From positions 4,816 to 68,815 of the forward strand of contig JAEXQJ010000259.1 in NCBI GenBank assembly GCA_023438785.1: 64,000 nucleotides of DNA, given 5' to 3'. Below, one piece after another: positions 1,550 through 22,364 of the stretch (its first letter is position 1; every line of letters starts with the position of its first letter). The position numbers and the translations under genes are program-made. This DNA is from Pseudomonadota bacterium. GTDB taxonomy: Bacteria; Myxococcota_A; Polyangia; Fen-1088. The notes beneath the pieces were generated by a model, which was not told where the DNA came from, made no database searches, and worked only from the letters and a program-made list of their open reading frames with translations.

Positions 1550-3283
1550 CTACAGGGGCGGGTAGGCGTTCTTCATCAGCTCCTGGAATTGGGCCGAGAA
1601 CCACTGGCCCGAGATCGGAGCATCAGCCAGCGCGCCCGACATGTTGTTCTTGTTGCGGCCGTTGCCACCATAGGTCGGATCGCACATGCGATCGAACCCC
1701 TTGCCCTCATCGTTCGGGATCTCCTTGCTGGCGCCGTCCGACTCTCCCGGGGGCTTGATCCACACGTAGGCGTGGATGCCATCCTTATTCACGACCTGAG
1801 GTCGCTCTCCCAATCCGGCCCCGGCCTGGTTGCACCAGTTGCCGGCATGGATGCGCCGATCGATGCGGCTCTGGTTGACCTGCGTTTCGATGTCGCTCGA
1901 ACTGCTCGCGCCCGTGGGTCGCGCGCTGCCGCCCCACCCGTTCCGGGAGGTGTCGATCAACATGCCGATCGTGGACTTGAAACCGTTGCTGACCAGCTTC
2001 TGCCGGAAGGCCTTAGCGAAGGTCAGCTCATCCACATACTGGTTGAAGTCAATCCACTTGGACTCCTTGGTCTTCTCGGTGAGCTGCAGGTAGGGCTCCG
2101 AGAGGACTGAGTAGTTGGCCGTGTTGGTGATGAAGCCGGTGACCGTGTCCACGCCGCCCTCGGCGCCCTTGGCCGTGGTGGCGAAGAGGTCGGCGGAGGG
2201 GCCGAAGCTGGTGTCCCACCCGATCCAGCCGTGGTGAGCCGCATCGATGTACGAGTAGGTGTTGCCCAGAGTGTGCAGCTTGCCGAGGGCGTACTGGATG
2301 CCCTTCACGTAGTTGCCATTGGCCTTCATGGTGTCGCACTGGGCCGTGGCTCCCGGCTGCCCTCCCGTGTTGGTGATCAGGTTGGGCAACGAATCGATCT
2401 CGATGATGTTGATGATGCGCAACTTGGCGTAGGCCTTATCGCTCATGATCTTGACGATGACGTCGATGTACTCGCTCTTGTAGCGCTCGATCTCCGTGGG
2501 GCCCAACTCGCCGTTGGACGCCAGGGCGGCGCAATCGCGGCCGGGCAGGTTGTAGATGACAATTTGGATGTAGCCCGCGTTCTGTTTGATGGCCTCGTCC
2601 AAGTGGTCGCGCAGGCCCATGCTGCCGTCGCCGCCATAGATGGCCGCGATGCGGTCCATCCACACGCCGGTGGGCGTGTTGGAGATGCGGCTGCCTTCGG
2701 GCTCGGCCTCGGCCTTGGCGCGCCACAAGGGGTTCACGTATCCGGTGGCGCCCTGATAGGGATTCTCGACGCGAGGCGCGTAGTCCGAGGAGTCCGCGGG
2801 AACGATGGCAGGGCCGGGGATCTCGCGAGGCCCGGTGCCCGTGCCCGTGTTGGTCTTCGTGCTGCCCGAACCACCGCCCGAACTTCCGGTCTCCACGGCC
2901 GTGGAGGTGAGGACCACGGTCTTGGTTTCGCTAACGGTCTCGATTCCCGTCACGGTGATTGTCACGGTGGCGGTGACGCTCTGGGTTTCGACCTGCGTCT
3001 GAGTGGCGGTGGCCGTGACGGTGTTGGTGCCGTCCATGGCGGTGACCGTGCCCGTGCCCACCGTGGTGACTGTCACGGTGAAAGACATTGTCCCGGTCTG
3101 AGTGGTGATCGCGGTGCGCGTGCTGGTCTCGACGGCGGTGCCCGTGCTGGTCGTGACGACCGTGTGCGAGTCATTGGACTTGCCACCGTCGCTGTCGCTG
3201 CCGGAACAGGCTGCCATCGGCAGGAGCAGCAACAGTCCGAGGGGTACCCAGGGTGTCCAGTGGCCGTGTCGGGTCTTTCTCAT
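1550..3283 (-). CDS. GH6 cellulase/cellobiohydrolase, secreted lipoprotein with Thr-rich linker
   Basis: ORF 1550..3376 trimmed to ATG at 3283 (MRKTRHG...LLLLLPMAACSG lipobox). GH6 hallmarks are present: GRDCAALASNGE, YIDAAHHGWIGWDTSFGPSADLF and GNWCNQAGAGLGERP. A long T/G/S linker follows the signal peptide. Confidence 0.9.
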   Translation of the reverse strand: MRKTRHGHWTPWVPLGLLLLLPMAACSGSDSDGGKSNDSHTVVTTSTGTAVETSTRTAITTQTGTMSFTVTVTTVGTGTVTAMDGTNTVTATATQTQVETQSVTATVTITVTGIETVSETKTVVLTSTAVETGSSGGGSGSTKTNTGTGTGPREIPGPAIVPADSSDYAPRVENPYQGATGYVNPLWRAKAEAEPEGSRISNTPTGVWMDRIAAIYGGDGSMGLRDHLDEAIKQNAGYIQIVIYNLPGRDCAALASNGELGPTEIERYKSEYIDVIVKIMSDKAYAKLRIINIIEIDSLPNLITNTGGQPGATAQCDTMKANGNYVKGIQYALGKLHTLGNTYSYIDAAHHGWIGWDTSFGPSADLFATTAKGAEGGVDTVTGFITNTANYSVLSEPYLQLTEKTKESKWIDFNQYVDELTFAKAFRQKLVSNGFKSTIGMLIDTSRNGWGGSARPTGASSSSDIETQVNQSRIDRRIHAGNWCNQAGAGLGERPQVVNKDGIHAYVWIKPPGESDGASKEIPNDEGKGFDRMCDPTYGGNGRNKNNMSGALADAPISGQWFSAQFQELMKNAYPPL

Positions 3284-3637
3284 TGCGTCACTATCCTTGT
3301 GCTCAGGGGAGGGCGAGTTGCGTCGATGGACGCACCAATGGCCTCGACTCAGCTTTCCCAACACGAAGCCCGGCACTCAGGACAAAGCTGGATCAGGGCG
3401 CCTAAGCTTGGAGTCTATGTAGACATGACAGCGACAGGTGGGAGAGTGGGAACCATTGTCGATCGGAAATTCGACAAGCACTCTCGCCCAGTTACGCGGT
3501 CGAGAAGGCGTGAGGTGATCCAAGGTAGGATGACGCGGGAAGAGGTTGGCGCGCGTTGTTAGCCGTCCCGCCTGGACCCCGCCGGTTCGAGTCGCCAGTC
3601 TTCTGCCCTGCGCTCGGCCGGGGCCGGGGTCGCCCCC

Positions 3638-4804
3638 CTACGGGATGAGCACGACGCGCTGACACCCATACACGAAGCTGATCTGCCCATCTCGCGAGGT
3701 GTTAACGCGTTCGCAGGTCTGGGGGCACAGCACGACCTTGGTGGGCTTGTCGGGGTTGTCGTAGTACCAACCCTTGCTGCCCGCCTTGTCGCAGTCGGCC
3801 TGTTTTACGCTCACCAGAGTCTCCTTGCTGGCGTAGTCCGTGAAGGTGACGTTCACCGCGTTGAAGTCCAAGTCGCCCTTCTCGGGCGGTGGAACCGTGT
3901 AATCGCACGTCAGGGTCTGGTTGCGGATGGCATCCAGGGCGGCGATGAACTGCTTGTCCACGTCCGCGGCCGTCGAGATGAGCGTGGCCTTCGCGGTGCC
4001 GCCCGCGACGGCGATGCTATCGAGCGCGGTCAATTCGCTGCCCACGCCGATAACGTAGACGGGGACCTTGGGCGCGCCCGCGTAGGCCTGGCCGCCAGCC
4101 ACGCGGCCCGCCGCCAACACGGCCTCTTCCAGCGAATTGGGCGGCGTGCTGCCGGCGCAGGTTCCGTCGGGAATGCCGTCCGTCGCCACCACGAGCACGG
4201 TGCGGTGATCGGGATGCGCCTGGGCCCACTCGGCCATGTACCTGCCCATGCCGTCCAGCGCCTGCACCAAGGGGGTGCCGCCGCTCATGCGCTGTCCGGC
4301 GAGCGACGCGCGCAAGGCATCGCCCACGCCGGGCAGCACGCCCATCTCCAGCGCGGGTTTGGTGTATCCCTCCTCGTCGCACGACAGCCGCAGGGGGAAG
4401 TACTGCAGGGCCATGGCCACGTTGGTATAGCGGGAACTCTGGGACACGATGCCCAGGGCGCCCGATACCTTGATCCACTTGTTCTCGTAGTCCATGGACG
4501 CCGACGTGTCGACGAGCAGGCCCAGGTCGAGCGGCGTGAGGTTCACCTTCTGCGTGCTGGTCGCGCACGTGTCCGCATCTCCAGGCGGTAGGCGATCTAC
4601 GGTCACAATGTCGGAGGTGGCGTCCCCCGGCATGTAGCTGATCGCGTCGCTCGTGCCGGCATCGTATTTTCCGTTCTGTCCTCCCGCGCCTCCCGTCCCG
4701 CTGCCACCGCCCTCTGGCGTTCTCTTCACGCCGCCACTGCCGCACGCGGGAATTGCCAGGGCCAGCGTTAACAGAGTGGTGCGTATGCTTCGATTGACCT
4801 TCAT
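3638..4804 (-). CDS. von Willebrand factor type A (VWA) domain lipoprotein
   Basis: ORF trimmed to ATG at 4804 (MKVNRSIRTTLLTLALAIPACGSGG). A MIDAS-like LVDTSASM motif precedes the VWA fold. GAGGA sits upstream. The gene is 8 bp downstream of the Cys-rich lipoprotein gene. Confidence 0.8.
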   Translation of the reverse strand: MKVNRSIRTTLLTLALAIPACGSGGVKRTPEGGGSGTGGAGGQNGKYDAGTSDAISYMPGDATSDIVTVDRLPPGDADTCATSTQKVNLTPLDLGLLVDTSASMDYENKWIKVSGALGIVSQSSRYTNVAMALQYFPLRLSCDEEGYTKPALEMGVLPGVGDALRASLAGQRMSGGTPLVQALDGMGRYMAEWAQAHPDHRTVLVVATDGIPDGTCAGSTPPNSLEEAVLAAGRVAGGQAYAGAPKVPVYVIGVGSELTALDSIAVAGGTAKATLISTAADVDKQFIAALDAIRNQTLTCDYTVPPPEKGDLDFNAVNVTFTDYASKETLVSVKQADCDKAGSKGWYYDNPDKPTKVVLCPQTCERVNTSRDGQISFVYGCQRVVLIP

Positions 4805-4812
4805 CGCCGTCC

Positions 4813-6738
4813 TCAGCAGGGGCCGCAGTTCAGTGTGCTGCCGCACTTGTCGTCCACGATTCCGCACTTGCCCGCGCATGTCGCCTTGGCGCAGCCACAC
4901 TCGTTGGACCTGCCGCTGCCTCCACAGGTCTCGTGAGGATTGGTGCAATCACAGGTCACGTTGACACCGCAGCCGTTGGGGAACGAGCCGCACTGGCCGG
5001 GGAAGTCGGCGCAGGTCTTGGCCGGGCAGGAGCAGGTGCCGGCAACCCCAGGCGTCGTGGAACTGCACGTGTTCCCGGTTCCGGCGCAGGGACAATCCAT
5101 CGTTCCGCCGAGACCATCGGGCAGCCTGGTGCCGCACTTGCCCGCGCAGCTATTCCGGCACTTGCCGTTCACGCACTCTTGCCCGCCGGGACAGCCGATC
5201 CAGCGGGTGCCGCACTCGTTGCTCACGTTCCCGCAGGTGCCCGTGGGCGCCGTGGGCAGGGTGCAGCAGTGGCCGTCCTTGCACACCTGATTCTCGCCGG
5301 TGCAGCCGAACTCCCGGCTGCCGCAGCTGTTGGTCGCGGTGCCACACTCGGCGCCGCCCAGCGCGCTCCTGTCGGGCAAGGTGCAGCACTTGTGGTCCGG
5401 GCCGCAGCCCTGTCCGTTCGGACAGGCGAAGTCCTTGCTGGCCCCGCAATCACTTGTCACGCGGCCACACTCCCAGCCCGGGGGCAGCGAGGTAGGCGGC
5501 GCGCAGCACACGCCCACGCCGTCGTTGTCCGGATCCACGCAGTCTGCGTTGTCCTTCCAGCAGTCGAAGCAGTTCAGCTTGCCGCCACACCCGTCGGGCA
5601 CGTTCCAGCCGCACACGCGCGGCGGGCCCGCGAGATCGTCGCAGGTCTTGGGTACGCACAGCTTCTCGCACTTGCCGTCGTCGTTGCACTTGAAGCCCGT
5701 GGGGCACGTGCCGCAGTCCACGCTCGACTTGCAGGCGTCGATGGCCGGGCCGCACTCGCGTCCCTCGGTGATGCACACCAAGGGGCGCGGCGGAACGTTG
5801 CAGCGGTTGGCCACACCGCCCGTGGCGCATTCCTTGCCCGAGGGGCAGTCACCGCAGTCGACGGTTTTGCCGCACCCATCGGTGACGAAGCCACACTCGT
5901 TGCCCAGGCCGGCGCAGGCCTGAGCCTTGGTCATGGGCGTGCACGTGCCACCCTCGGAGACGGGCTTCAGCTCGCAGGTGTTGAAGGCCGGGTTGCACAC
6001 GCGTCCGGTGGGGCAGGCCCCGCAGTCGGTCAACTCTGTAGTCGGACCACAACCCAACCAGGCCTCGCCGCAGGCGATACCCATGGCCGAGCAGGCGCCC
6101 GCCGCCTGCGCGGGCAACGTGCACGCGACGCAGCGGTTGGTATCGGGATTACACTCCTGACCGGTGGGGCAGGTGCCGCAATCGAGCACCGTCCCACAGC
6201 TATTGCGGATGCGGCCGCACTCGGCGCCCAGATCGGCGCACACCACCTTGGGCGTCACGCAGCGGTGCAAGGTCGGATCGCACGCCAGCCCCTTGGCGCA
6301 GGTTTCACACTCGAGGGTCTGGCCCGTGCACAGATCCAGCACGCTGCCACACAGACCCGTGCAGTCGGTGTATTGGGGCGTGCAGGTCAAGCCGACCTCA
6401 CCGCCGTCCGCCCAGGCATTTCCGTCGGCATCGAGCGCGGGGCCGCTGTCGACCAGCGGTTCGACCCGATCGGCCGGTTGCGTGTCGAGGGAGCGGGCGT
6501 CGGTGACCGGAACGGGAGCATCGGCGTTGCGGGTGTCGCCGGAGCGGCTGTCGCCGGGGGGCGAACGCAGATCCACGGCCGCGTCGTTGGCGTGCTTCTC
6601 GCCCGTCGGTGAGCACCCCGCTAGGAGCAGCGCGCTCAGCAGAGCCGTGGTGGCCCACCAGGGGGACGCCCAACGCCCATCTTTCACGCCGCTCGTCGGT
6701 ACGGACTTCTCGTGTACGCTCGCGTTTCGCTTCGCCAT
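4813..6738 (-). CDS. Secreted lipoprotein with about 11 tandem Cys-rich repeats (C-x-x-x-G-x-C-G-x(4-5)-C-G-x(2-3)-D-C-G-x-C-P-x-G-x-x-C-N)
   Basis: ORF 4813..6981 trimmed to ATG at 6738 (MAKRNASV...ALLSALLLAGCSPTGEK lipobox). The body consists of repeats of about 36-40 aa with 6-7 conserved Cys, for example VCADLGAECGRIRNSCGTVLDCGTCPTGQECNPDTNRC. Confidence 0.8.
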   Translation of the reverse strand: MAKRNASVHEKSVPTSGVKDGRWASPWWATTALLSALLLAGCSPTGEKHANDAAVDLRSPPGDSRSGDTRNADAPVPVTDARSLDTQPADRVEPLVDSGPALDADGNAWADGGEVGLTCTPQYTDCTGLCGSVLDLCTGQTLECETCAKGLACDPTLHRCVTPKVVCADLGAECGRIRNSCGTVLDCGTCPTGQECNPDTNRCVACTLPAQAAGACSAMGIACGEAWLGCGPTTELTDCGACPTGRVCNPAFNTCELKPVSEGGTCTPMTKAQACAGLGNECGFVTDGCGKTVDCGDCPSGKECATGGVANRCNVPPRPLVCITEGRECGPAIDACKSSVDCGTCPTGFKCNDDGKCEKLCVPKTCDDLAGPPRVCGWNVPDGCGGKLNCFDCWKDNADCVDPDNDGVGVCCAPPTSLPPGWECGRVTSDCGASKDFACPNGQGCGPDHKCCTLPDRSALGGAECGTATNSCGSREFGCTGENQVCKDGHCCTLPTAPTGTCGNVSNECGTRWIGCPGGQECVNGKCRNSCAGKCGTRLPDGLGGTMDCPCAGTGNTCSSTTPGVAGTCSCPAKTCADFPGQCGSFPNGCGVNVTCDCTNPHETCGGSGRSNECGCAKATCAGKCGIVDDKCGSTLNCGPC

Positions 6739-6826
6739 AGGTCTGTTCACCTCGGTAGGCCGGACTTCATCTTTATACGGGAACGCGAACACTGCGTCGC
6801 GAAGAAACCGAGGCAGCCGGCGGTGC

Positions 6827-6860
6827 GCGCCCGTGCGGGAGTGCGTGTGCGCACGGGCGC
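6827..6860. promoter_or_regulatory. Perfect 11-bp inverted repeat (GCGCCCGTGCG-N12-CGCACGGGCGC) in a divergent intergenic region
   Basis: Seen directly in the sequence between the start of the Cys-rich lipoprotein operon (6738, minus) and the NTase operon (6993, plus). No U-tract follows, so an operator is more likely than a terminator. Confidence 0.3.
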
Positions 6861-6992
6861 GGCGTCGTCGACGAACCGAAGCCGCGGGTCCTTCGTACAC
6901 ATGTGGTGCGCGTGTGCGCGTGCGGCGACATGTGATGCCGTTGTCCACTTGCTGCCCGAGCGAGCGGACCCATCCTCCCAAATGGGGGTAGT

Positions 6993-7658
6993 GTGGCGGG
7001 CGCGGATCGCGAACCGGCAGACAACCAGGCCTTCGAGGACGTCCTCGACGAGGCCGTCTTGGCCCTCGACGGCAGCGGCTTGCGCTACGCGGTGATGGGC
7101 GGCATTGCGGCCACCGCGTTGGGCGGCTATCGCCACACCCATGACATCGATGTATTCGTGAAGCCGGATGACGCCGAGGCGACCTTGGGCACCCTGGGCC
7201 GCAGCGGATTCGCCACCGAGAGGACCGACCCTCACTGGCTGTTCAAGGCCGTCAAGCGCGACATCACCGTGGACATCATCTTCAAGTCCGCGGGGGCCGT
7301 GTACTTCGACGAGAGCATGATCGAGCGCTCGGCCAAGGTGGACTTCCGTGGCCGCAAGATCCGTGTCATCGCGCCCGAGGACCTCTTCGTCATCAAAGCG
7401 TTGGTGCTCAACGAGCACAACCTGAGCCTGGATGAGCACTGCGTCCGCCACTTGAACGATCTGCTGGCCATCGTGCGTTCGTGCTCGCTGGATTGGGACT
7501 ACCTCCTGCGGCGGGCGCGCCTGGGACCGCGGCGCGTGTTGGGCCTGCTGCTCTACGCGCAGTCATTGGACCTGCTGGTCCCGGATCACCCGATCCGCGA
7601 GCTGGTCGACATGCTGCAACTGGGGAAGCGCTATGCTGAGTCAGACCGCAAAGGATGA
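6993..7658 (+). CDS. Pol-beta superfamily nucleotidyltransferase-family protein (uncharacterised NTase family)
   Basis: GTG start as given by the ORF track. The motif GG-x9-G-x5-D-I-D (MGGIAATALGGYRHTHDIDVF) is the minimal NTase signature. The start is uncertain. Confidence 0.6.
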   Translation: MAGADREPADNQAFEDVLDEAVLALDGSGLRYAVMGGIAATALGGYRHTHDIDVFVKPDDAEATLGTLGRSGFATERTDPHWLFKAVKRDITVDIIFKSAGAVYFDESMIERSAKVDFRGRKIRVIAPEDLFVIKALVLNEHNLSLDEHCVRHLNDLLAIVRSCSLDWDYLLRRARLGPRRVLGLLLYAQSLDLLVPDHPIRELVDMLQLGKRYAESDRKG

Positions 7659-7902
7659 ACCGCGCTATCTGGCGCCGCGCATTCGGCAGGCTTTGGCCGA
7701 CGACGCCCGCGTCAGCATGTTGGACATCAAGGTGCTGGTGAAGGACAGGGTTATCCACATCATGGGCCAGGTGGATACGGGGGAGCGGCGCGAGGCCGTG
7801 CGCGAGGTGGTGGCACAAGCAGCCCCGGGCTTCGAGGTGCGGGACGAGACCACGGAACTGGAACTGGCGCCGCCCGGGCATCCCGAGGTGATCGTTGATT
7901 AG
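7633..7902 (+). CDS. Small BON-domain protein
   Basis: 89 aa. ARVSMLDIKVLVKDRVIHIMGQVDTGERREAVREVVAQAAPGFEVRDE matches the BON fold pattern. It overlaps the NTase 3' end by 25 nt and the next gene by TTGATTAG. Confidence 0.5.
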   Translation: MLSQTAKDEPRYLAPRIRQALADDARVSMLDIKVLVKDRVIHIMGQVDTGERREAVREVVAQAAPGFEVRDETTELELAPPGHPEVIVD

Positions 7903-8635
7903 GGTCGCTGCCATCGCAGACATGCACTTCTCGGAGACGTCCGGCGGGACGTTGCGGCGCTATTGGGCGGCCATCAACGAGGTGGCGGACGTGCTGCTCA
8001 TCGCGGGCGACCTGACCACGCATGGCGAGCCCGAGCAGGCCATGGTCTTGGCCGAGGAGCTGGCCGTGGTCCAGGTCCCCATCGTCCTGGTCTTGGGCAA
8101 TCACGAGTACCAGAGCGGCAAGGAGGCGGAGCTGCGCCGTCGCTTGGAGGCGCGCAAGCTGACCGTGCTCGAGGGTGAGCGCATCGAGCTGCAGATCAAC
8201 GGCCATCGCCTGGCCGTGGTGGGCACCAAAGGTTTTGGCGGCGGCTTTGCGGGCGCCTGTGGCACCGCCTTCGGTGAGCCCGAGATGAAGGCGTTCATCC
8301 GCCACACCGAGAGACTGGCCGCCGTCCTGGAGGCCGAGCTCGCCGGAAGCTCCGCCGATTTCCGCGTGGCGCTGACCCACTATTCGCCCATCAAGGACAC
8401 GGTCATGGGCGAGCGTCTGGAGATCTTTCCCTTCTTGGGCAGCTACCTTCTGGCCGAGGCCATCGACCGGGCGGGTGCCGATCTGGTGGTCCACGGCCAC
8501 GCCCACCACGGCACGCACAAGGGCGTCACCTCGTGCGGGATCCCGGTGCGCAACGTGGCCATGCCCATGCTGCGCTCGCCCTACGTGATCTTCCACCTGA
8601 CCCGCGGCGCTGCTGCGCCCTGGGCCACCCGCTGA
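7895..8635 (+). CDS. Calcineurin-like metallophosphoesterase
   Basis: TTG start (IRVAAIADMHF). Motifs DxH (ADMHF), GDL(T), GNHE and GHAHH are present. An alternative ATG lies at 7922. Confidence 0.8.
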   Translation: MIRVAAIADMHFSETSGGTLRRYWAAINEVADVLLIAGDLTTHGEPEQAMVLAEELAVVQVPIVLVLGNHEYQSGKEAELRRRLEARKLTVLEGERIELQINGHRLAVVGTKGFGGGFAGACGTAFGEPEMKAFIRHTERLAAVLEAELAGSSADFRVALTHYSPIKDTVMGERLEIFPFLGSYLLAEAIDRAGADLVVHGHAHHGTHKGVTSCGIPVRNVAMPMLRSPYVIFHLTRGAAAPWATR

Positions 8636-13525: not shown

Positions 13526-14539
13526 TCAAGGCTGGGGCATGCCGCATTCGTCGATCGGCTTGTCAGGCCGCCAGCGCAGGAACGTGGGCTGGCGCAAAAG
13601 ACCCTCAGCGGTCACCTCGCGGTAGCGAATCTCGCACACCAAGCGGGGCGCGACCCAGGTGCAGGGGAGGCCGCGTGGCACGGGACCGCCGCACGGCGGC
13701 TTCCGCACCGCGTCGGCGGCCAATTGGCGCGGCAGCCTCTCCAGATCCTCCTCGCTCAGTCCGCTGCCCGCGCGGCCCACGTAGACCAGGCCCGACGCGG
13801 CCGGCGCGGCGAGCAGCAAGGAGCCCAGGCCGGTACGCAGGCCGCCCGGCGCCGTGTAGCCCACCACCACGAGGTCGGCCACCCGATCGCGACGGATCTT
13901 CAGCCAGTGGCGCGAGCGCCCGGCCCGATAGGCCGCATCGGCCCGCTTGGCCATGATGCCCTCCAGGCCCATGCGGGCTACAGCCGCGAACACCTCCTCG
14001 CCGCGTGTCTCGATGTGGTCCACGTAGCGCAGGGGTCCCGTCGTGGGCAGCAGGCGCGCCAGCAGCCGCTTGCGTTCGAGCAAAGGCAGCGGCCGCACGT
14101 CGTGTCCCTCCACGCCCAGCAGATCGAAGACGAAGTACAGCGCGGGCAGGGTGGCGGCGGCTTGGGCGATCTCGGCGGGGTTGTTGAGCAGGGCGCGTCG
14201 CTGCAGGCGCTGGAAGCTGGGATGTCCGCGCTCGTCGGTGACCACGATTTCCCCATCCAACACCATGTCGACGGGCAGAGCGCGGAGTGCCACTTCCAGA
14301 TCGGGATAGACCGCCGTCGCATCGCCCCCGCCCCGGTGAAAGATATGCGCGGAGGGGCCGTGTCGCTCAGCCAGGGCGCGAAAGCCGTCGTACTTGATCT
14401 CGAAGAGCCAACCGGCGCCGGTGAAGGGCCGAGCGCGCATCTCGGCCAGCATCGGTGAGGCCGCCCCGGCGCGCACCGTTGCGGAAGGTGCGCCCAGTCT
14501 CTCCAACTCGGCCGCAAGCCAGTGCGATGTGTCCGCCAT
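13526..14539 (-). CDS. ligD: ATP-dependent DNA ligase, ligase-domain-only LigD/LigC type (NHEJ)
   Basis: KxDG adenylation motif (WLFEIKYDGFR) and PMLAE motif. 337 aa with no polymerase or phosphoesterase domains. Divergent from ku. Confidence 0.85.
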   Translation of the reverse strand: MADTSHWLAAELERLGAPSATVRAGAASPMLAEMRARPFTGAGWLFEIKYDGFRALAERHGPSAHIFHRGGGDATAVYPDLEVALRALPVDMVLDGEIVVTDERGHPSFQRLQRRALLNNPAEIAQAAATLPALYFVFDLLGVEGHDVRPLPLLERKRLLARLLPTTGPLRYVDHIETRGEEVFAAVARMGLEGIMAKRADAAYRAGRSRHWLKIRRDRVADLVVVGYTAPGGLRTGLGSLLLAAPAASGLVYVGRAGSGLSEEDLERLPRQLAADAVRKPPCGGPVPRGLPCTWVAPRLVCEIRYREVTAEGLLRQPTFLRWRPDKPIDECGMPQP

Positions 14540-14586
14540 GTTGGCAGCCCCGAGAATTGCCGCGCCCTGCTCGCTACATTTCGATC

Positions 14587-15447
14587 ATGGCTCGTGCGAT
14601 CGCGGGCGCCACTGTCTCGTTCGGCCTCGTGTCCATCCCTGTGAAGCTGTATCCGGCCACGCGGCGGGCCTCGGGCGTGGCGTTTCATCTCCTGCACAAG
14701 ACGGACGGGTCGCGTTTGCACCAGCAGTATCTGTGTGCCAAGGACGGCGACGTGGTGCCGCGCGACGAGATGATCAAGGGCTACGAATTCGCCAAGGACC
14801 AGTACGTGACCTTCACCAACGAAGAGCTGAAGGCCATGGAGGAGAAGTCGACCCAGACCATCGAGATCGCGCAATTTGTGCCGCTCGACAAGGTAGACCC
14901 GGTGTACTTCGACCGACCCTATTACCTGGCCCCGGAAAAGGGCGGCGAGAAGGCCTATCGCCTCCTGGTCGAGGTCATGGAGATGAGCGGGCGGGCCGCG
15001 GTGGGGCGCTACGCCGCGCGCGACCGTTTGTACCTGGTCATGTTGCGGCCCGCGCCGGGCGCCCAGGGCGGCGCGCACGGCATGGTCATGCAGCAGCTCC
15101 TCTTCTCCGATGAGGTGCGGCCGTTTTCCGAGGTCCCCATCCCTGAGAGTCGGGTGAGCGAGCCCGAGCTGAAGCTGGCCCAGCAGTTGGTCGACCAGAT
15201 CGCCTCGGACAGCTTCGATGCGAGCGCCTACCGCAACGAGGTGCGGGATCGCATCGAGGCCGAGATCCAACGCAAGTTGGAAGGCAAGGAGATCGCTGTC
15301 TCGCCCGCCGCGGCTCCGCCCGCCCAGGTCATCGATCTCATGGCGGCGCTCAAGGCCAGCCTGAGTGGCCAGCCCGCGGCCGCCTCGCCTTCGCCCGGCG
15401 TCCGGCGCCCGTCACGACACCGTCCGGGGGCGCGACGGACGCGCTGA
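14587..15447 (+). CDS. ku: Ku protein (NHEJ)
   Basis: Internal ATG at 14587. MARAIAGATVSFGLVSIPVKLYPAT is a canonical bacterial Ku N-terminus. It has a basic C-terminal tail. Confidence 0.9.
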   Translation: MARAIAGATVSFGLVSIPVKLYPATRRASGVAFHLLHKTDGSRLHQQYLCAKDGDVVPRDEMIKGYEFAKDQYVTFTNEELKAMEEKSTQTIEIAQFVPLDKVDPVYFDRPYYLAPEKGGEKAYRLLVEVMEMSGRAAVGRYAARDRLYLVMLRPAPGAQGGAHGMVMQQLLFSDEVRPFSEVPIPESRVSEPELKLAQQLVDQIASDSFDASAYRNEVRDRIEAEIQRKLEGKEIAVSPAAAPPAQVIDLMAALKASLSGQPAAASPSPGVRRPSRHRPGARRTR

Positions 15448-15480: not shown

Positions 15481-18400
15481 TCAGTACCTGTAGGTCCATA
15501 GCGCGTCCAGGCTGCCCACACCCGCGTCGCCGAAAATGGTCTCCAGGATCCAGCCACGCGAAATGGTGTACTGCACGCTGGCCTCATTGGCGTTTTGCTC
15601 CGTGCTGGCGCCGAACACGTGGGCGTAGCTCAGGTAGACGCGGCTGCTGATGTACTTGCCCACCTCGAGGCGCGTGCCGGGCGTTCCCGCTGCCGCGGCT
15701 TCCACCGGCGCCGGCGCGCTCTGCACCCGCAGGACGTCCACGCCCAGGCGCGGCGCCAGCTTGTCCGCGATTTGCCCGAGCACGGCGCTGGCCACCGCGG
15801 CCTTGGGATCGAAGGCACTGTCGGCCGACGGCTGGCCACCGGCTTGCCCGGTGAGGATGAGGCTGACGATCTGGGCCTGATCGAAGGTGGGGGGATCGCT
15901 GCTCAGGCGCAGCTCGGGCTTCTGCGGTGTGCCCCTGACTTCCACGGCCACCAGGGCCTCGGGGAACAGGTGGGTCACGCGGATGTCCAGGCGGGGCTCG
16001 GTCGTGCCGTCGAAGGCCACGCGGCCGTAATCCACGTCGAAACGCTGTCCACTCACGTCGATGTGACCGCGCCGGATTTCGATGGTGCCCGCAAGGACGG
16101 TAGAGCCGCCGGCCGCCGTGCCCACGTGCAAGTTGCTGACCACGTCTATATCCAGATTCTGCCCGCGCACCTGCACGTTTTCGGCGTTGGCCTGCAGATC
16201 CAGGCGCAGGGCTGGGCCGCCGCCCGCTCGTTTGTGCTCCTCCGCCGCTGCCTTGGCCGCCTCGTCAACGAAGTGCACGTCGTCGCGAGGACCGATGGGC
16301 TGTAGCTTGCGCCCACCCAGGTCCAGCGACGGCAGCCGCAACGTGGCGCGCGGCACGTCGAGCCGGCCCGACAGCACCGATTCGTGCAGGGCCGCATCGA
16401 GGGCGAAGTCGCCGTTGAGGCGCAGGCCCGAGACCCCGCCCGTCGCGAGTGCGACCATGAAGCGACGGGCCTGGACGGTCAGCGCGATCTGCACGGGGCG
16501 CAGTCCCTCTAGCAGCACGAAGCCTTCGCCATCCAGGGTGCCGCCGGCCGATGAGGCGTGCAGAGTCTCCACGTCGATGCGACCTGGACGGAGCCGCACG
16601 TCCGCCCTCACATCGTCGAAGGTGGGTTGCCCCACCAAGCCCACGCGGCCCTCGCGCCAGGTGATGGTCCCGCGCAGTTCGGGGGCGTGCAGGGGACCGC
16701 TGGCCTGCACGTCAGCCTCGATCAGACCGTCCGCCTCCCGAAGCCGGGGCAAGAACAGACGAGCGAAACCCGGGTGCAGACGGTGGGCGCGCACGTCCGC
16801 CCGGATTCTGCGCGCCTGATCCATTTCGGCGCGGGCGTGCAGTTGGCCCCCGGCGATCTCGGCCACCTCCAAGAGCAAACGCGTGCCCTCGGGTTCCAGG
16901 CTGGCGTGGACGCGCACCGGGCCCAGGCGCAGCCGGTCCACACGGCCCGCGGTCAGGACCGCATCGATGGTGCCCAGGGGGCGATGCGGCGTGCCGCGCA
17001 GGCGGGCCGAGGCGGCCACCATCCCTCCCAAGTCAAGCAGCCGATCGTCGAGCTTCGACAGGGAGGCCAAATCAAGACGGCGGAGGTCCGCATTTAGCTC
17101 CACGGGCGCGTCTTGCACCTGGAGGCCGGCCAGCAGGGCGCCCACGGGGCGGCCGATGCGGCCCTCGGCCTGCAGGCTGGCACCGTCCCCCGTGATCATC
17201 TGCAGCCGGCCGCGCAGGCCCCCGGGCTCACTGTCGAGGGCCACCAGACCCTGCAGCCGGGGCAGGCGATGCAGGCGTGATCGGCGGCCCGGCAGGCGCA
17301 GATCCAGATCGTGCAGGCTGGCGCGGATGTGCACATCTGGGCGGGCCACGTCGCCTTGCACGCGTGCCAGCAGTTCGACGACGCCGCCTTCCACGCCGTG
17401 GGCGGTGAGTCGACGTGCGAGCAGCGGCAGACGTTCCAGGCGCGCGGCGCTGCTGGCCACGCGAATGGCCAGGGGACCGCGTCTGGCCAGGTGGGGAACA
17501 GACTGGCGGGTGAGCGGAACCTGCGCGTCGAGACGCAGGCGGGTGCATCCCGCATCGAGGTTCACGTGCAACTCGCCTTGGCCCACGCCCAGCACGGCCT
17601 GGGCCTGGCCGCTGAAGCGATCCACGCCCGGGAGCTGCACGTTGCTCGCGAGGAGCTTGGCGTGTCCGCGCGGCACGTGGCCCAATGTGAGGACGGCATC
17701 GAGTGCGAGTTGGCCGGCGTAGGTGCCCTGGCCTTGCACGCGCACTTCTTCAAGGGCAAGACGTCGGCCCGATGCCCAGCGGACGGTGGCCGGCTCAAGC
17801 AGTCGCAGGTGCTCGGCCAGATCGCGTCCTCGTAGTAAAAGCTCCAACTCGCGCACGCGCGCCACCACCTCATCCGCCTCCACGCGCCCACGGCCCGCGA
17901 CCCGGATGCGAAACTGGGGCCCCTGTGCACGGGCCGACACGTCCAAGGCACGCCCGTCGCCCACCACATCGAGGAAGACGCGATCGAAATCCGGCAGCCC
18001 GCTTGCCAGGTGCATCCCCTGGGCTACCAGGGTGAGCCGGCCGCGCGGGCGATGAAGATCGCCGGCCAGCTTGCCTCGTAGCCGGAGGGCCGAGATGTGC
18101 GACTGGCGCACGGCCAGGTGGGAGCCGACGGCAGCGAGATTCACGTCGAGCGCCGAGGGAAAGCGGCCGCGCAGCCTGGCCCGCAGCACACCGTGGCCGC
18201 GGATATCGGGATGAGGGCCGTCCTCGGGTGCGCCCGCGCGGGCTTGCAACTCGGCGTTGACGTCGCGGCCTACGCCACGGCCGCGCAGGGTGATGCGCGC
18301 GCCTGCGCCCCGCAGTGAGGCTTGCCGAATGGTCCAGCTCGTACCCAAGGCCTCCGCGTCCAGGCGCAGCTCAAGGATGCGGATGCCAGCCAGGTGGAAT

Positions 18401-19395
18401 GGCCGAGCCGTCAGGTGCGCGCGGGCGCGCGTCCCGGGCTGCAGAGGCGTGCCCGCGCCTTGCACCGCCCCTCGCGCACTGATCTGCCCCTCGGGTGCGC
18501 TGGGCGAGAACCAGCGCGGATTCACCCCCTGCAGGTCGAGCTGCAGGTCGTAGGCGACCGGCTCGCTGCGCAGGTCCACGGTCCCGCGCGCGCGCAGCGA
18601 CGAGGACTGGGCAGGCACATCCATGTCCACGTGCACGGCCAGGCGGTCGCGCGGTCCCGCGGCGCGGACCCGCAGAATCACGCGCGCGCCGTCGGGGCCC
18701 GCCAGGGTGACGGGGGCCGTTTCGACATCGAGCGAATTCCGCGCAACCCGCGCCCGCCCGCGCAGGGCGAGCTGACAAGGCCGCCCGTTGACGCGCACCG
18801 CGGTTTGCAGCTCGGTGGTGCCCAGGTCGATCTCTCCGTCGCCCAGCGTCCCACTTGACGACAACCGCAGGTCCGCCACCTGGATGCGCCGCCCGCCGGC
18901 CAGGATCACGTCCGCGCGGCCCTCTCGGAGGGTGAATTCTTGCACGCGGATTCGGCCGCGCCGCTGCCCGGTTGGCCCCGCGGTCCCTGCCGTCCCCAGG
19001 TGCTGCAGGTTGAGCGATCCGTCGTCGAGCGGACGGATGACCACCGAGGGACGGACAACACTCAGCCGCACGATCTCCAGACGCCCGCGCAGGAGAGCCC
19101 CCAGGCGGTAGCGTCCCTGCACGCGCGCCACGTGCACGGCAGGCCGCCCCTGGGCATCGCGAATGGTCACGTCCTCCAGCCACAGCTCGTGCAGCACGTC
19201 GCCGCCCACCTGACCCACATGCAGGCCCGGCCAGCGGGCGCGGCCGCGCGACTCGATGATCTCCTTCAGGTGCGCGTGACCCGCGTCGGTGCGCAGGTAC
19301 AGCATCAGTCCCACGATGGCCAGCCCCACGACGACCAGCGCCCCGGCCATCACCAGCCCTGCCACCTTCACCGTACGCCACAACACGTGCAGCAC
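15481..19395 (-). CDS. tamB: Translocation and assembly module subunit TamB (DUF490 C-terminus)
   Basis: 1304 aa. N-terminal TM (VAGLVMAGALVVVGLAIVGL), long beta-helical body and DUF490-like C-terminus. GTG start. Immediately downstream of tamA. Confidence 0.85.
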   Translation of the reverse strand: MLHVLWRTVKVAGLVMAGALVVVGLAIVGLMLYLRTDAGHAHLKEIIESRGRARWPGLHVGQVGGDVLHELWLEDVTIRDAQGRPAVHVARVQGRYRLGALLRGRLEIVRLSVVRPSVVIRPLDDGSLNLQHLGTAGTAGPTGQRRGRIRVQEFTLREGRADVILAGGRRIQVADLRLSSSGTLGDGEIDLGTTELQTAVRVNGRPCQLALRGRARVARNSLDVETAPVTLAGPDGARVILRVRAAGPRDRLAVHVDMDVPAQSSSLRARGTVDLRSEPVAYDLQLDLQGVNPRWFSPSAPEGQISARGAVQGAGTPLQPGTRARAHLTARPFHLAGIRILELRLDAEALGTSWTIRQASLRGAGARITLRGRGVGRDVNAELQARAGAPEDGPHPDIRGHGVLRARLRGRFPSALDVNLAAVGSHLAVRQSHISALRLRGKLAGDLHRPRGRLTLVAQGMHLASGLPDFDRVFLDVVGDGRALDVSARAQGPQFRIRVAGRGRVEADEVVARVRELELLLRGRDLAEHLRLLEPATVRWASGRRLALEEVRVQGQGTYAGQLALDAVLTLGHVPRGHAKLLASNVQLPGVDRFSGQAQAVLGVGQGELHVNLDAGCTRLRLDAQVPLTRQSVPHLARRGPLAIRVASSAARLERLPLLARRLTAHGVEGGVVELLARVQGDVARPDVHIRASLHDLDLRLPGRRSRLHRLPRLQGLVALDSEPGGLRGRLQMITGDGASLQAEGRIGRPVGALLAGLQVQDAPVELNADLRRLDLASLSKLDDRLLDLGGMVAASARLRGTPHRPLGTIDAVLTAGRVDRLRLGPVRVHASLEPEGTRLLLEVAEIAGGQLHARAEMDQARRIRADVRAHRLHPGFARLFLPRLREADGLIEADVQASGPLHAPELRGTITWREGRVGLVGQPTFDDVRADVRLRPGRIDVETLHASSAGGTLDGEGFVLLEGLRPVQIALTVQARRFMVALATGGVSGLRLNGDFALDAALHESVLSGRLDVPRATLRLPSLDLGGRKLQPIGPRDDVHFVDEAAKAAAEEHKRAGGGPALRLDLQANAENVQVRGQNLDIDVVSNLHVGTAAGGSTVLAGTIEIRRGHIDVSGQRFDVDYGRVAFDGTTEPRLDIRVTHLFPEALVAVEVRGTPQKPELRLSSDPPTFDQAQIVSLILTGQAGGQPSADSAFDPKAAVASAVLGQIADKLAPRLGVDVLRVQSAPAPVEAAAAGTPGTRLEVGKYISSRVYLSYAHVFGASTEQNANEASVQYTISRGWILETIFGDAGVGSLDALWTYRY

Positions 19396-19418
19396 GACGT
19401 CTCATCGCCTCAGCGTGA

Positions 19419-21350
19419 CTAGAATGCCTCGCCCAATGTGAAGTGTATGGTCCAACGCTGACCCGGGTCCGGGTTGGCCGGTGCCTGGTTCGGGATGACC
19501 ACGCCCGACAGGCGGTTGAGGCGAATGCCTACGCCCACCCGCACAATGCCAATCACGGTTTGATAGTCGAGGTCCGCGCCGGTCGCGTAGTGCAGGTTGC
19601 CCATGTCGAGCTGATCGAAGTGCACCGTCACGTCGCCCGCGTCGAAGAAGGGCACGATGCCCAGCCAGTTTCCCGAGAGGCGAAACAGGTCCAGCCGCGC
19701 CTCGGCGGACAGCAGAACGGCCCCGTCGCCGCCCACGGGGATGAGGTTGCCGTCTTGATCCGCGATCTGGGGAGACAGCCGGCCGAAGTTGAAGCCGCGG
19801 TGGCTGGCCGGACCGCCCAGGTAGAACCGTCGCGTGACCGGACTGTTGGTGGCCGCGCCCGCGGGCCCCAGCGGACGCAGCCAGCCGACCATGCCCCGCG
19901 CGGCCAGCACGAGCCGCGGACCCAGCGGCGCGTAAAGGCGCAGATCGGGCGTGGCCTTGGTGTAGCGGAATTCACCGCCCACCGCGCGCGCCCCTTGTTC
20001 CAGCGACACCGCCGCGTAGCCGCCGTAGCTGGGCGAGAAGGGCTTGTCACGCAGGTCGAACTGCACGGTCTCCATGACGAAGGCCAGCCGGTACGGATTG
20101 GTGAAGCCGAAACCCAGCTCGGTGCGCGTCGGATCGAAGACCGCCTCGTTGATGTTGAAGAACTGCAGAAACTGCAGGTTCCACGAGGCGGCCAAGAGCA
20201 GGCGATCGCGCACGAAGAGGCGTTGGGCTCCGATTTGGCCGCGCGGGCCGTAAGCCTGGTAGCCCTCGGTGAGGAGCAACTGGAAGCCCGCCAGCCCTTG
20301 CAGCGTCATGGCTGTACCCAGGGCATCCGGTTGGGTCAATTGTACGTCCGCGTCCAGCGCGGGGCCCTTCCGTTGTGGGTTGATGACGGTGGGCACGACC
20401 ACGTAGGCCGGGCGGAGGCGCACCTGCAAGCGGCGCAGCCCACCCAGAAAATCGCTCAAGGTCCACACGGCGCGCAGGCGCACCTCCTGTCGCTCGCGGT
20501 CAAGTGCCACGCCGCCGCCGAGCCGCAGTTCGTGCAGGCGACCGAGCTGAGTCTGAATGTTCACGTCGGCCACCGGCGTGGGCTGGGCCGGCAGGGTTAG
20601 GCGCACCGACGAGAAGACGCCCGTGTCGTAGAAGTGCCCTTGGGTGATAGCCAAATCATCCGGGTCGTAGCGATCGCCTGGTTTCCAGCTCACCCGCCGC
20701 TGCAGTTTCCAGGTGGGGACGCCGGGGCTGCCCTGAATGATGGCGCGGCCGAAATGCACCAACGGGCCTGGCCGGGCGCGCAGAAAGACCTGGGCCGTTC
20801 GGCGATCGCGGTCCACGTCGATGTGCGCGTCCAGTCGGGCGTAGGCAAATCCGTTCTGGCGCAAGATGTTCTGCGCCTCGGCCTTGAGCTCCGTGTATCG
20901 TCCGTAGTCGACGCGCTTGCCGGGCAGGATCTTGAGCGACCTGGCCCGGCGCTCGACGGCCTCCCGCTGGCGCGCATCGGGAAAGCCGTCCAGGTGCAGC
21001 GCCTCGATGAGGGTGGGCTGGCCCTCCGCGACGGTGACGCTCACCTCCACGGACCCATCACCGCGCTGGCGAACCCTCTGGCCCGTGACCCGCGCCTGGT
21101 AGTAGCCGCGCTCCGCGTAGAAGGCGGGAATGCGCTGCAGGTCCAACTCGAATGCGGCTGAGTCGAATGGCTGAGGCTCGGCCAGGGGCCACCAACCCGT
21201 GGGCTGCGTGGCCAGCCCGTGGCGCAACTGGCGGTCCGAGAAGGCGTGGTTGCCCTCGATGTGGAAGGAACGGACCCAGGTGGTCGGTAAGGGCTCGTGC
21301 GCGCACCCGCCCGACATCGCCAGGCAGAGCACGGCCACTCCCGGTCTCAC
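19419..21350 (-). CDS. tamA: Omp85-family outer membrane protein TamA (3 POTRA domains plus beta-barrel, C-terminal Phe)
   Basis: ORF 19419..21884. The N-terminal 178 codons are Arg-rich with low GC3, so the start was placed at GTG 21350 (VRPGVAVLCLAMSGGCA signal). POTRA-like repeats and a terminal ...HFTLGEAF are present. The start is uncertain (21350-21884). Confidence 0.8.
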   Translation of the reverse strand: MRPGVAVLCLAMSGGCAHEPLPTTWVRSFHIEGNHAFSDRQLRHGLATQPTGWWPLAEPQPFDSAAFELDLQRIPAFYAERGYYQARVTGQRVRQRGDGSVEVSVTVAEGQPTLIEALHLDGFPDARQREAVERRARSLKILPGKRVDYGRYTELKAEAQNILRQNGFAYARLDAHIDVDRDRRTAQVFLRARPGPLVHFGRAIIQGSPGVPTWKLQRRVSWKPGDRYDPDDLAITQGHFYDTGVFSSVRLTLPAQPTPVADVNIQTQLGRLHELRLGGGVALDRERQEVRLRAVWTLSDFLGGLRRLQVRLRPAYVVVPTVINPQRKGPALDADVQLTQPDALGTAMTLQGLAGFQLLLTEGYQAYGPRGQIGAQRLFVRDRLLLAASWNLQFLQFFNINEAVFDPTRTELGFGFTNPYRLAFVMETVQFDLRDKPFSPSYGGYAAVSLEQGARAVGGEFRYTKATPDLRLYAPLGPRLVLAARGMVGWLRPLGPAGAATNSPVTRRFYLGGPASHRGFNFGRLSPQIADQDGNLIPVGGDGAVLLSAEARLDLFRLSGNWLGIVPFFDAGDVTVHFDQLDMGNLHYATGADLDYQTVIGIVRVGVGIRLNRLSGVVIPNQAPANPDPGQRWTIHFTLGEAF

Positions 21351-22364
21351 GTGGCGCCCGACTGGCGCCCGTGGCAGGAATTTATCGAGAGGGCGCGCGG
21401 CCGGTGCGCGCGCGAAGGTGCGGGCCGGCGCGGCAAGGGAGCCCTGGGCCCCTTCGCCCAAGGCGCGTGCCCGTGCCCGGGGGCGAAAGAGGGTCATGGC
21501 AACCAGAGCAGAGCAGTTCAGGGCAGCCCAAGAGCGAACCGGTCGAGCGAGACTGCCCAACGGCGGGCACGAATCCGCAGGCAGGCGGGCGGCACGGGCC
21601 GGGCGCACCAAGGATCGTATCCCCAACCAGGCCTCGCACAACGAGGCCACGAGCGCCGGGCGCAAGAGCTCATACGAATTCGAGATCGCGCAGGGAGCGC
21701 GGCCCTCGCGCAAGTCCACACGCAAGAGCAACAACCGCCAGAAGACCGACGGCGGGCTGCGCATGACCGCCGTGAACCGCAGCAGCATGGCCAGCGCCCG
21801 CGCCCAGCGCCGGGGAGGCAATCGCGTCTGAACGGAACGGACCCGCTCCCTCTGCGGCTCGGTTTGGAAAGCGGGCCTGGGCATGGCGAGGAGAGCGGCC
21901 CATCACGCGAACGCTGGACCAGCGACCTCCCCCCAGAGGTGCCTCATCACTCGCCATGCCCCGCCCTAAAAACTGATCCGTGGCTGCCTCCGCTCACCCT
22001 TCTCCACTGTCGGTGATTTCAAAAGCGAGGCCGTTCCTCCAACCCAGTGGTCTCCGCCGAACCCCCCGGCCTATCTTCATGGTCTCCGACTGTCCATTCC
22101 CCGTCCACACGGTGCAGTCACGAATCGCCCTTAGGACATCTCAATTCTCGTGCCGGCCGCGGGCTCTCGTCCGGGCGGCGCCAAACGCGCGGAATCACAG
22201 GCGGCGTCTGCGTGGGGCCGTAACAGAGTGGCAACAGATGGCACCGGATGGAAACACGACGCGCACTTCCGTCGCGGGGACGCAGCGGGCCGGCAGATCT
22301 TTCGCTTGAGAGCGGGCAGGCGTGTGCTAGAGATTGCCGCCTCGCTCAGCCAGGAGGGTTGGAG

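Follow-up and report, generated by a model that had tools for sequence, protein, structure and literature searches.

Organization of the Two-Gene Locus

The DNA analyzed here, referred to as the window, is a stretch of 64,000 nt (contig JAEXQJ010000259.1, positions 4,816 to 68,815; assembly GCA_023438785.1) from an uncultured soil myxobacterium placed by GTDB in Myxococcota_A, class Polyangia. It has a G+C content of 68% and its counterpart among metagenome scaffolds is LEMO22-1_SAMN17278943 scaffold_25 (104 kb). [quoted passage not shown] The two genes represent a conserved, uncharacterized two-gene family that is so far restricted to uncultured Myxococcota. The features of the pair, in window positions, are as follows:

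4813–6738, minus strand: Cys-rich repeat lipoprotein gene, from the open reading frame (ORF) and its translation (ATG at 6738, stop at 4815–4813 included; 641 residues, 85 Cys)
6613–6738, minus strand: signal peptide and lipobox of the Cys-rich protein (residues 1–42, LLAG-C42), read from the sequence
6400–6612, minus strand: acidic, Pro-rich disordered tether (residues 43–113; AlphaFold2 predicted local distance difference test (pLDDT) values < 50 over residues 1–113)
5656–6384, minus strand: canonical Cys repeats of 37–40 residues (residues 119–361), with repeat hidden Markov model (HMM) matches, invariant Cys columns and pLDDT of 85–95
4816–5655, minus strand: divergent Cys-rich modules including CC doublets (residues 362–641), ending in a conserved ...CGxxDDxCGxxxxCGPC
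4805–4812, minus strand: intercistronic junction of 8 nt (TGA-GGACGGCG-ATG), as it stands in the sequence
3638–4804, minus strand: VWA lipoprotein gene, from the ORF and its translation (ATG at 4804, stop at 3640–3638 included; 388 residues, 9 Cys)
4742–4804, minus strand: signal peptide and lipobox of the VWA protein (residues 1–21, AIPA-C21)
3914–4576, minus strand: VWA domain (residues ~77–297), with MIDAS residues D99, S101 and S103 (4496–4510), T177 and D209
3641–3913, minus strand: C-terminal domain of the VWA protein, ~90 residues and mostly beta (residues 298–388), with C300, C338, C360, C364 and C381 conserved and pLDDT of 85–95

An earlier annotation of this DNA, made without database searches and called here the first-pass annotation, had described two lipoprotein genes 8 bp apart, and both the ORFs and the lipoboxes bear this out. 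The annotation of the source contig calls the same Cys-rich gene. A Shine-Dalgarno-like GGA is located directly 3' of the TGA stop of the Cys-rich gene, junctions of the same type (4–15 nt) were found in 10 other loci, and the CGPC-stop ending of the stalk protein followed by GGA is kept in relatives. An alternative in-frame GTG start for the Cys-rich gene is present at 6750. The residues N-x-P-x-A-K-R just upstream of or around the annotated start are kept in a relative (6739–6760 in the window, 1113–1150 in locus L005), hence the true start of the Cys-rich gene may be GTG 6750 and not ATG 6738.

Conservation of the Gene Pair

The homologues of the VWA protein (221 in total) are named only as proteins from Polyangiaceae, Polyangia, Myxococcales or Labilithrix metagenome-assembled genomes (MAGs), and the 375 homologues of the Cys-rich protein are all annotated as hypothetical, none of them with a Pfam domain. 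In each of the six distinct contig neighborhoods seeded with the VWA protein, the window contig included, a protein of 617–819 residues without a Pfam domain is encoded directly upstream of the VWA gene at a gap of 4–14 nt, and these upstream proteins are clear homologues of the Cys-rich protein of the window. When the neighborhoods were seeded with the Cys-rich protein, the next gene encoded a VWA-type protein of 360–398 residues in all five cases. A scan of 185,579 GTDB species representatives seeded with motifs of the VWA family gave 46 loci, all of them in MAGs and none in an isolate of Myxococcus, Corallococcus or Stigmatella. An ORF with 10–19% Cys ends at the VWA gene in all of the 44 evaluable GTDB loci.

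The first-pass annotation had raised the question whether the VWA and repeat proteins co-occur in Myxococcota. The answer is a strict pairing, kept in every evaluable case (11 contig neighborhoods and 44 out of 44 GTDB loci), all of which are MAGs of Polyangia or other Myxococcota. No fusion of the stalk and VWA proteins was found among 387 fetched proteins. The flanking genes vary by lineage, and include those for glycoside hydrolase family 6 (GH6), arabinofuranosidase, SGL with peptidase M90 and a kinase, or a TonB receptor. Since the flanks differ between lineages, the conserved unit consists of just the two genes.

Some loci carry a third gene directly after the VWA gene, although the clade of the window has neither of the two types observed. 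A VWA paralogue is encoded by it in a count of six loci. Such a gene, noted at L010 (7071–8108), L014 (8599–9630), L034, L038, L044, L046 and L062, overlaps or abuts the stop of the VWA gene, and its product has ~340 residues and the same C-terminal Cys domain; the operon in these lineages comprises a stalk and two heads. In four other loci (L051, L053, L054 and L060), the third gene encodes an unrelated, secreted protein of 425–528 residues without a Pfam match. To judge from its sequence, the C-terminal half of this protein looks rich in beta-strands and could be an outer-membrane barrel.

The Cys-Rich Stalk Protein

The 641 residues of the stalk protein include 85 Cys (13%) and 91 Gly, and 84 of the Cys are found within residues 119–641. 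The lipobox residue C42 is at least 90% conserved among 44 homologues, and nearly all Cys columns of the stalk are invariant or at least 90% conserved in the same set. Four canonical repeat units occupy residues 167–203, 216–255, 275–313 and 322–361. A seed HMM built from the four obvious units finds the same four (residues 167–361; independent E-values from 1 × 10−19 to 1 × 10−23), and they score from 1 × 10−13 to 1 × 10−21 with an HMM rebuilt from units of the wider family. Both of the HMMs also detect a degenerate first unit at residues 130–160, and weaker matches run through the C-terminal half, where residues 366–641 are made up of six to seven divergent Cys modules, and CC doublets occur in some of these. 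Thus, the initial description of the protein as about 11 repeats of ~38 residues with 6–7 Cys each is a fair summary, but only the four to five N-terminal units are canonical according to the HMM analysis, and the six to seven that follow are divergent.

AlphaFold2 modeling with the 44-sequence alignment gave pLDDT values below 50 for residues 1–113 and of 85–95 for residues 114–640, with a predicted template modeling score of 0.46. This pattern fits a model in which many small beta-hairpin modules would be strung together in a long chain behind a disordered tether. Not counting the lipobox Cys and any before it, the window protein and its closest relatives have even numbers of Cys (84, 84, 106, 116 and 106), which fits complete disulfide bonding.

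The 38-Residue Repeat as a Family

The consensus of the repeat family is CxxLGAECGxxxxGCGxxxDCGxCPxGxxCxxxxxNxC, with seven invariant Cys. The first-pass annotation had pointed to a repeat HMM as a check, and to a known, widespread family with a defined role as the match that would speak against its reading. No such match was obtained from Pfam, NCBIfam or PDB, although the repeat is widespread and uncatalogued. Specifically, the Cys-rich protein of the window has no Pfam or NCBIfam match at E ≤ 0.1, its 44 homologues have no Pfam family match at E ≤ 0.01, and PDB sequence searches with profiles of the full-length family and of the repeat gave nothing significant. The best Foldseek matches of the stalk model in PDB were LRP2, the cysteine-rich domains of tumor necrosis factor receptors, Pfs25, the Entamoeba Gal/GalNAc lectin and follistatin. 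Because all of these have E-values ≥ 0.03 and probabilities ≤ 0.16, the modeled stalk is assigned provisionally to the general class of elongated disulfide-repeat ectodomains, outside any recognized fold family.

Searches with the 38-position repeat profile retrieved 3,394 cluster representatives (50% identity) at E ≤ 1 × 10−3, 1,356 at 1 × 10−10 and 221 at 1 × 10−30, with up to 22 repeat copies per protein. Known domains are carried by 3 of 10 repeat proteins that were scanned against Pfam: GH123 with CBM9 in one, FGE-sulfatase in another, and FGE-sulfatase with SBBP and PPC in the third. A further member of the family, P0228, carries CBM2. The few members of the family with named sources are Myxococcota, including Bradymonadaceae. 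The repeat acts like a mobile module that serves as a spacer or stalk in extracellular proteins.

A described repeat that resembles it is the Myxococcus cysteine-rich repeat (TIGR02232/DUF4215), which is likewise ~40 residues long, rich in Cys, present in many copies, and found in exported myxobacterial proteins. However, neither the window protein nor its 44 homologues match it even at permissive thresholds, and the CxxLGAECGxxxxGCGxxxDCGxCPxGxxC consensus is distinct. Whatever its function, the 38-residue repeat constitutes a sizeable extracellular domain family that is missing from Pfam and NCBIfam, and its description would improve the annotation of Myxococcota secretomes.

The VWA Protein

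The presence of a MIDAS-like VWA domain and a Cys-containing tail, noticed in the first-pass annotation, was confirmed: the MIDAS is complete and invariant, and the tail is a C-terminal domain with five Cys. The alignment of 42 homologues shows that the lipobox residue C21 and the MIDAS residues D99, S101, S103, T177 and D209 are invariant (a full DxSxS...T...D motif), and that the eight Cys outside the lipobox are invariant or nearly so. Residues 22–76 form a Gly-rich linker of ~55 residues with low model confidence. In the structural model, the Rossmann-like alpha/beta fold of VWA domains is recovered, and its nearest structural neighbors include many ligand-binding adhesins and matrix proteins.

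The PF00092 score of the window protein (18.5 bits) is below the gathering cutoff of 23.8, but many members of the family carry a precomputed PF00092 match, and the window protein is therefore a divergent member of the VWA family rather than a non-member. The C-terminal domain has the signature C-D-Y-x-I-P...VNV...GWYYDD...LCP..C...FGC, and neither a Pfam match in the domain scan nor a significant PDB match in the profile search was found for it.

Proposed Function and Alternative Explanations

With moderate confidence, the two-gene operon is interpreted as encoding two extracytoplasmic lipoproteins that act as a bipartite, integrin-like cell-envelope adhesin. The pairing of the genes, the folds, and the invariant MIDAS and Cys positions are the observed part of this interpretation. 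Export and lipid anchoring of both proteins are proposed because their sequences read so and the lipobox Cys are conserved. The stalk protein would be held by its lipid anchor and would consist of a disordered tether of ~70 residues followed by an elongated rod of about a dozen small disulfide-stabilized modules. The VWA protein would be anchored through its Gly-rich linker of ~55 residues, and would present a head with a complete MIDAS together with the C-terminal five-Cys domain. Coupled translation is suggested by the shortness of the junction and by the Shine-Dalgarno-like GGA next to the stop codon, and it would yield the two proteins in roughly equal amounts.

The stalk and the head may then come together as a single adhesive complex of the cell envelope. 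We infer a single unit because the genes are inseparable yet never fused, and because the head-plus-stalk design recurs in proven adhesins, namely integrin beta, the Entamoeba lectin and CglD of Myxococcus xanthus, in which a VWA head is combined with a Cys-rich stalk. The metal of the MIDAS would bind an acidic group, which may belong to the stalk protein itself or to a ligand from outside (the substratum, a polymer of the matrix, or another cell). The occurrence of the repeat in proteins with GH123 and CBM9, FGE-sulfatase, SBBP, PPC or CBM2 was also counted in favor of the adhesin interpretation. The extracellular adhesion or matrix module suggested in the first-pass annotation agrees with the strict pairing, the invariant MIDAS in a VWA fold, and the disulfide stalk behind a tether; its architectural part stands, and its functional part is plausible and is strengthened by the co-occurrence and the structural models.

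Several points weigh against an adhesin. The physical association of the stalk and VWA proteins, their surface exposure and their adhesive role are what we infer rather than observe. The lipobox of the VWA protein (AIPA-C21) has an atypical Pro at position −2. In the wider family of the stalk protein, Cys parity is mixed, with 49 even and 37 odd counts under a crude lipobox filter. No genes for motility, pili or secretion are found in the annotated part of the window (~1.5–31 kb). Finally, all of the relatives are MAGs or metagenome contigs, hence the family comes without phenotypes.

A bolder form of the adhesin interpretation, which is put forward tentatively and appears rather doubtful, is that the pair might be a two-chain bacterial counterpart of integrins. 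In this form, equal amounts of the lipid-anchored stalk and VWA/MIDAS subunits, expressed from coupled genes, would make up a heterodimeric surface adhesin specific to uncultured Polyangia-type myxobacteria, with the stalk drawn from the Myxococcota-wide uncatalogued 38-residue repeat family of more than 3,000 clusters.

One alternative, which we regard as unlikely, is that the VWA protein is not an adhesin but serves as an assembly, retention or maturation partner that binds the Cys-rich protein via its MIDAS. The Cys-rich protein would then be the only component that functions at the surface, such as a fiber of the matrix or of an S-layer-like kind. Strict co-occurrence and a junction suggestive of coupled translation are in line with such a partnership, as are the conserved and acidic C-terminus of the stalk protein (...VDDxCG...CGPC) and the second VWA paralogue located directly downstream in some lineages. 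On the other hand, many ligand-binding adhesins are among the nearest structural neighbors of the VWA domain. Nothing separates this alternative from the adhesin model.

It is markedly less probable that the pair belongs to a polysaccharide-degrading apparatus, in which the VWA head is presented or kept at a distance by the stalk, beside a GH6 cellulase encoded immediately downstream:

1550–3376, minus strand: GH6 glycoside hydrolase gene (Pfam E-value, 6 × 10−88), 262–355 bp downstream of the pair

The location of this gene on the same strand, the lipobox-like PMAAC of its product, and the occurrence of the Cys repeat in the GH123+CBM9 and CBM2 proteins all speak for such an apparatus. However, the adjacency is not kept. 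Downstream of the pair in the 79%-identity relative, the genes run on the other strand, and the first of them that could be assigned to a Pfam family encodes an arabinofuranosidase; other lineages have genes for SGL, peptidase M90, a kinase or a TonB receptor at this place; the terminator/promoter scan gives nothing either way. The GH6 gene was accordingly rejected as a member of the module, its adjacency not being conserved in relatives. The GH6 protein itself has a linker of low complexity, long and rich in Thr and Val, as well as the lipobox-like sequence LLLLPMAAC, and would be the third consecutive putative lipoprotein at the locus.

Hardly credible is a thiolate metal-binding (metallothionein-like) periplasmic buffer with the VWA protein as a chelatase-like partner, as suggested by the 13% Cys content and weak sequence matches of the VWA protein to cobaltochelatase CobT, given that the Cys are invariant within regular, confidently modeled beta-hairpin modules, that their post-lipobox count is even in close relatives, that export would bring both proteins into an oxidizing compartment, and that no AAA+ chelatase partner is encoded nearby.

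Comparison with Known Adhesins

Of the bacterial adhesins, only the myxobacterial VWA lipoproteins CglB and CglD are known to have been compared with integrins so far, and a single cultured genus is the source of both. CglB of M. xanthus is a VWA outer-membrane lipoprotein with a MIDAS and disulfides, which is essential for gliding with the Agl-Glt machine (PMC9946355). CglD of M. xanthus is a beta-integrin-like gliding adhesin lipoprotein with a Cys-rich EGF-like stalk and a VWA domain, and disulfides have been shown experimentally to stabilize it (bioRxiv 10.1101/2023.10.19.562135). Both are experimentally supported as adhesins (PMC9946355; bioRxiv 10.1101/2023.10.19.562135).

The VWA protein of the window resembles CglB in size (388 and 416 residues, respectively), in a lipobox Cys near residue 20, in a VWA domain with a full MIDAS, in extra Cys, which in CglB are predicted to form disulfides, and in a second small beta-rich domain (PMC9946355). 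It combines the traits of the CglB type, i.e., it is a lipoprotein with a VWA domain, a MIDAS and extra conserved Cys (eight besides C21). Differences from CglB are also evident: in a comparison by description only, CglB has 16 non-lipobox Cys versus eight here, its MIDAS starts at D56 rather than at D99 after a long Gly-rich linker, and its DxSxS motif is separated from the Thr by 126 residues versus 78. Moreover, CglB is reported together with agl/glt genes (PMC9946355), whereas none are seen in the annotated part of the window; agl/glt-type genes were absent both from the window proteins scanned and from the flanks of related loci.

With CglD, the pair shares a myxobacterial lipoprotein design that joins a stalk of small disulfide repeats to a MIDAS-bearing VWA domain. 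CglD, however, is a single chain of 1,130 residues with 4.1% Cys, whereas in the pair each part has its own gene, one for the stalk (13% Cys) and one for the head, at every locus. CglD also has a COMP-like/thrombospondin-type Ca-binding region with DxDxDG motifs; the proteins of the pair have no such Pfam match and none of these motifs is visible in their sequences, and neither thrombospondin-type nor EGF Pfam matches were found in the stalk protein or its homologues.

The combination of a VWA-like head and a Cys-rich stalk is also shared with the integrin beta subunit and the heavy chain of the Entamoeba Gal/GalNAc lectin. These two differ from the pair in having a transmembrane helix instead of a lipid anchor, while in the pair the parts are placed on separate chains. 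None of the matches of the stalk is significant (best E-value, 0.03; probability, 0.16), and there is no sign of common descent beyond the VWA superfamily.

The best reading of these comparisons is that the pair may be functionally analogous to CglB/CglD and set apart from them by their descriptions, and that the module is most suitably classed with the VWA-lipoprotein adhesins of myxobacteria, as a variation on their theme that makes use of an uncatalogued repeat family. If this is true, the design of a VWA head with a Cys-rich stalk extends to a large group of uncultured Polyangia. The head and the stalk can then be separate, co-inherited subunits, which bears on the assembly and evolution of integrin-like architectures.

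The Upstream Palindrome

The region of 254 bp between the Cys-rich gene and the divergent nucleotidyltransferase gene, which starts at 6993, contains a palindrome and a conserved block that overlaps it:

6826–6861, no strand assigned: perfect inverted repeat with 12-nt arms (6826–6837 and 6850–6861, 100% complementary) and a 12-nt loop
6837–6857, minus strand: conserved block of 21 nt, 19 of 21 identical to the nearest relative, with an inner repeat GTGCG-N4-CGCAC at 6841–6854

The first-pass annotation had reported this palindrome as an 11-bp perfect inverted repeat with a 12-nt spacer and proposed it as an operator. The repeat is real and the spacer is right, but the arms are 12 nt long, not 11, and the operator itself is largely unsupported: the palindrome falls within chance expectation, its right arm is lost at 79% identity, and the element is absent at 60% identity. 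No other perfect inverted repeat of the window combines arms of ≥11 nt with a spacer of 3–20 nt. Markov-shuffled windows hold on average 0.86 perfect inverted repeats with arms of ≥11 nt. For arms of ≥12 nt the average is 0.25, and at least one such repeat occurs in 18% of the shuffled windows; the palindrome alone is thus within chance expectation.

In the closest relative (L003/L005; proteins 76–79% identical), the loop and the arm that is on the left when read in gene orientation are kept as the 21-nt block CCCGTGC[G/A]CACA[C/T]GCACTCCC, and none of 200 shuffles reached the identity of 19/21. The inner repeat GTGCG-CACA-CGCAC of the window is GTGCA-CACA-TGCAC in L003, with both arms changed. 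The right arm of the palindrome is not kept in L003/L005, and the 12-bp stem is therefore lost there. Neither the orthologous loci at 60% identity (L016, L018 and L065) nor any of the other fetched loci (578 kb) contain the block, and no shared inverted repeat was found upstream of the orthologues in eight other loci. Judging from these alignments, a short cis element probably exists at 6837–6857, and it is not the conspicuous palindrome that is conserved. By-eye inspection of the conserved block for a sigma-54 or sigma-70 reading gave no fit.

If the palindrome were an operator, a dimeric transcription factor bound at 6826–6861 would control the Cys-rich/VWA operon, the divergent nucleotidyltransferase gene, or both. 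This appears improbable. The perfect 12+12 symmetry with a 12-nt spacer in a divergent region, unique in the window, and the overlapping block with its shuffle result argue for it, as does the inner symmetry that survives the change of both arms (GTGCG-N4-CGCAC to GTGCA-N4-TGCAC). However, this compensatory change is known from two sequences only, an inverted repeat with arms at least this long turns up in 18% of random windows of the same composition, and the 12-bp symmetry is gone in L003/L005. In addition, no related element occurs at L016, L018, L065 or any other fetched locus, the block is missing from the 578 kb, and the promoter/terminator scan gave nothing useful, with no sigma-70-like promoter near the palindrome.

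Even less is to be said for a hairpin that forms in the mRNA of the Cys-rich gene, within its 5' leader, and acts on stability or translation, or for membership in a dispersed family of repetitive extragenic palindromic (REP)-like elements; both are very improbable. The hairpin dominates the leader in its minimum-free-energy fold, but this fold is no more stable than those of shuffled sequences (z = −0.62), neither the window nor the intergenic region matched anything in Rfam at E ≤ 1, and the stem is not kept in the nearest relative. A common REP-like element had been named in the first-pass annotation as the finding that would count against its reading; the 64-kb window instead contains a single hairpin, the other arm copies being isolated. 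An exact-arm search in JGI metagenomes returned nine hairpins with unrelated loops and flanks, which we take to be independent GC-rich hairpins. Altogether, the palindrome adds little to the significance of the locus.

Two further observations concern the sequence of this region. The arm 12-mer CGCGCCCGTGCG is the commonest 12-mer in the window (5 copies versus 0.23 expected from dinucleotide shuffles). Its three extra copies (32439–32450, 44616–44627 and 62227–62238) are located inside ORFs, isolated, not hairpin-paired and without shared extended flanks, although in two of these copies the identity extends to 15 nt, CGCGCCCGTGCGGCG. The excess is likely due to codon bias. A second GC-rich quasi-palindromic stretch is found in the same intergenic region at 6899–6934, where CACATGTG and GACATGTG flank GTGCGCGTGTGCGCGTGC. 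It holds an 87% direct copy of the palindrome loop and arm (6838–6852 versus 6905–6919), and is not conserved in L003.

Neighboring Genes

On the opposite side of the divergent region, the window contains the following genes:

6993–8635, plus strand: divergent neighbors, i.e., a DUF2204/NTP_transf_5 nucleotidyltransferase gene, a gene for a small BON-domain protein that overlaps its end, and a metallophosphoesterase gene

In the nearest relative, an acetyltransferase gene replaces that of the nucleotidyltransferase. Further along the window, genes for Ku/LigD, TamA/TamB, GH1 and PurH were identified. A non-homologous end joining pair (ATP-dependent DNA ligase and Ku, convergent and overlapping; 13526–15447) is located next to a TamB/Omp85 (TamA-like) pair (15481–21884), and both pairs are ordinary housekeeping genes.

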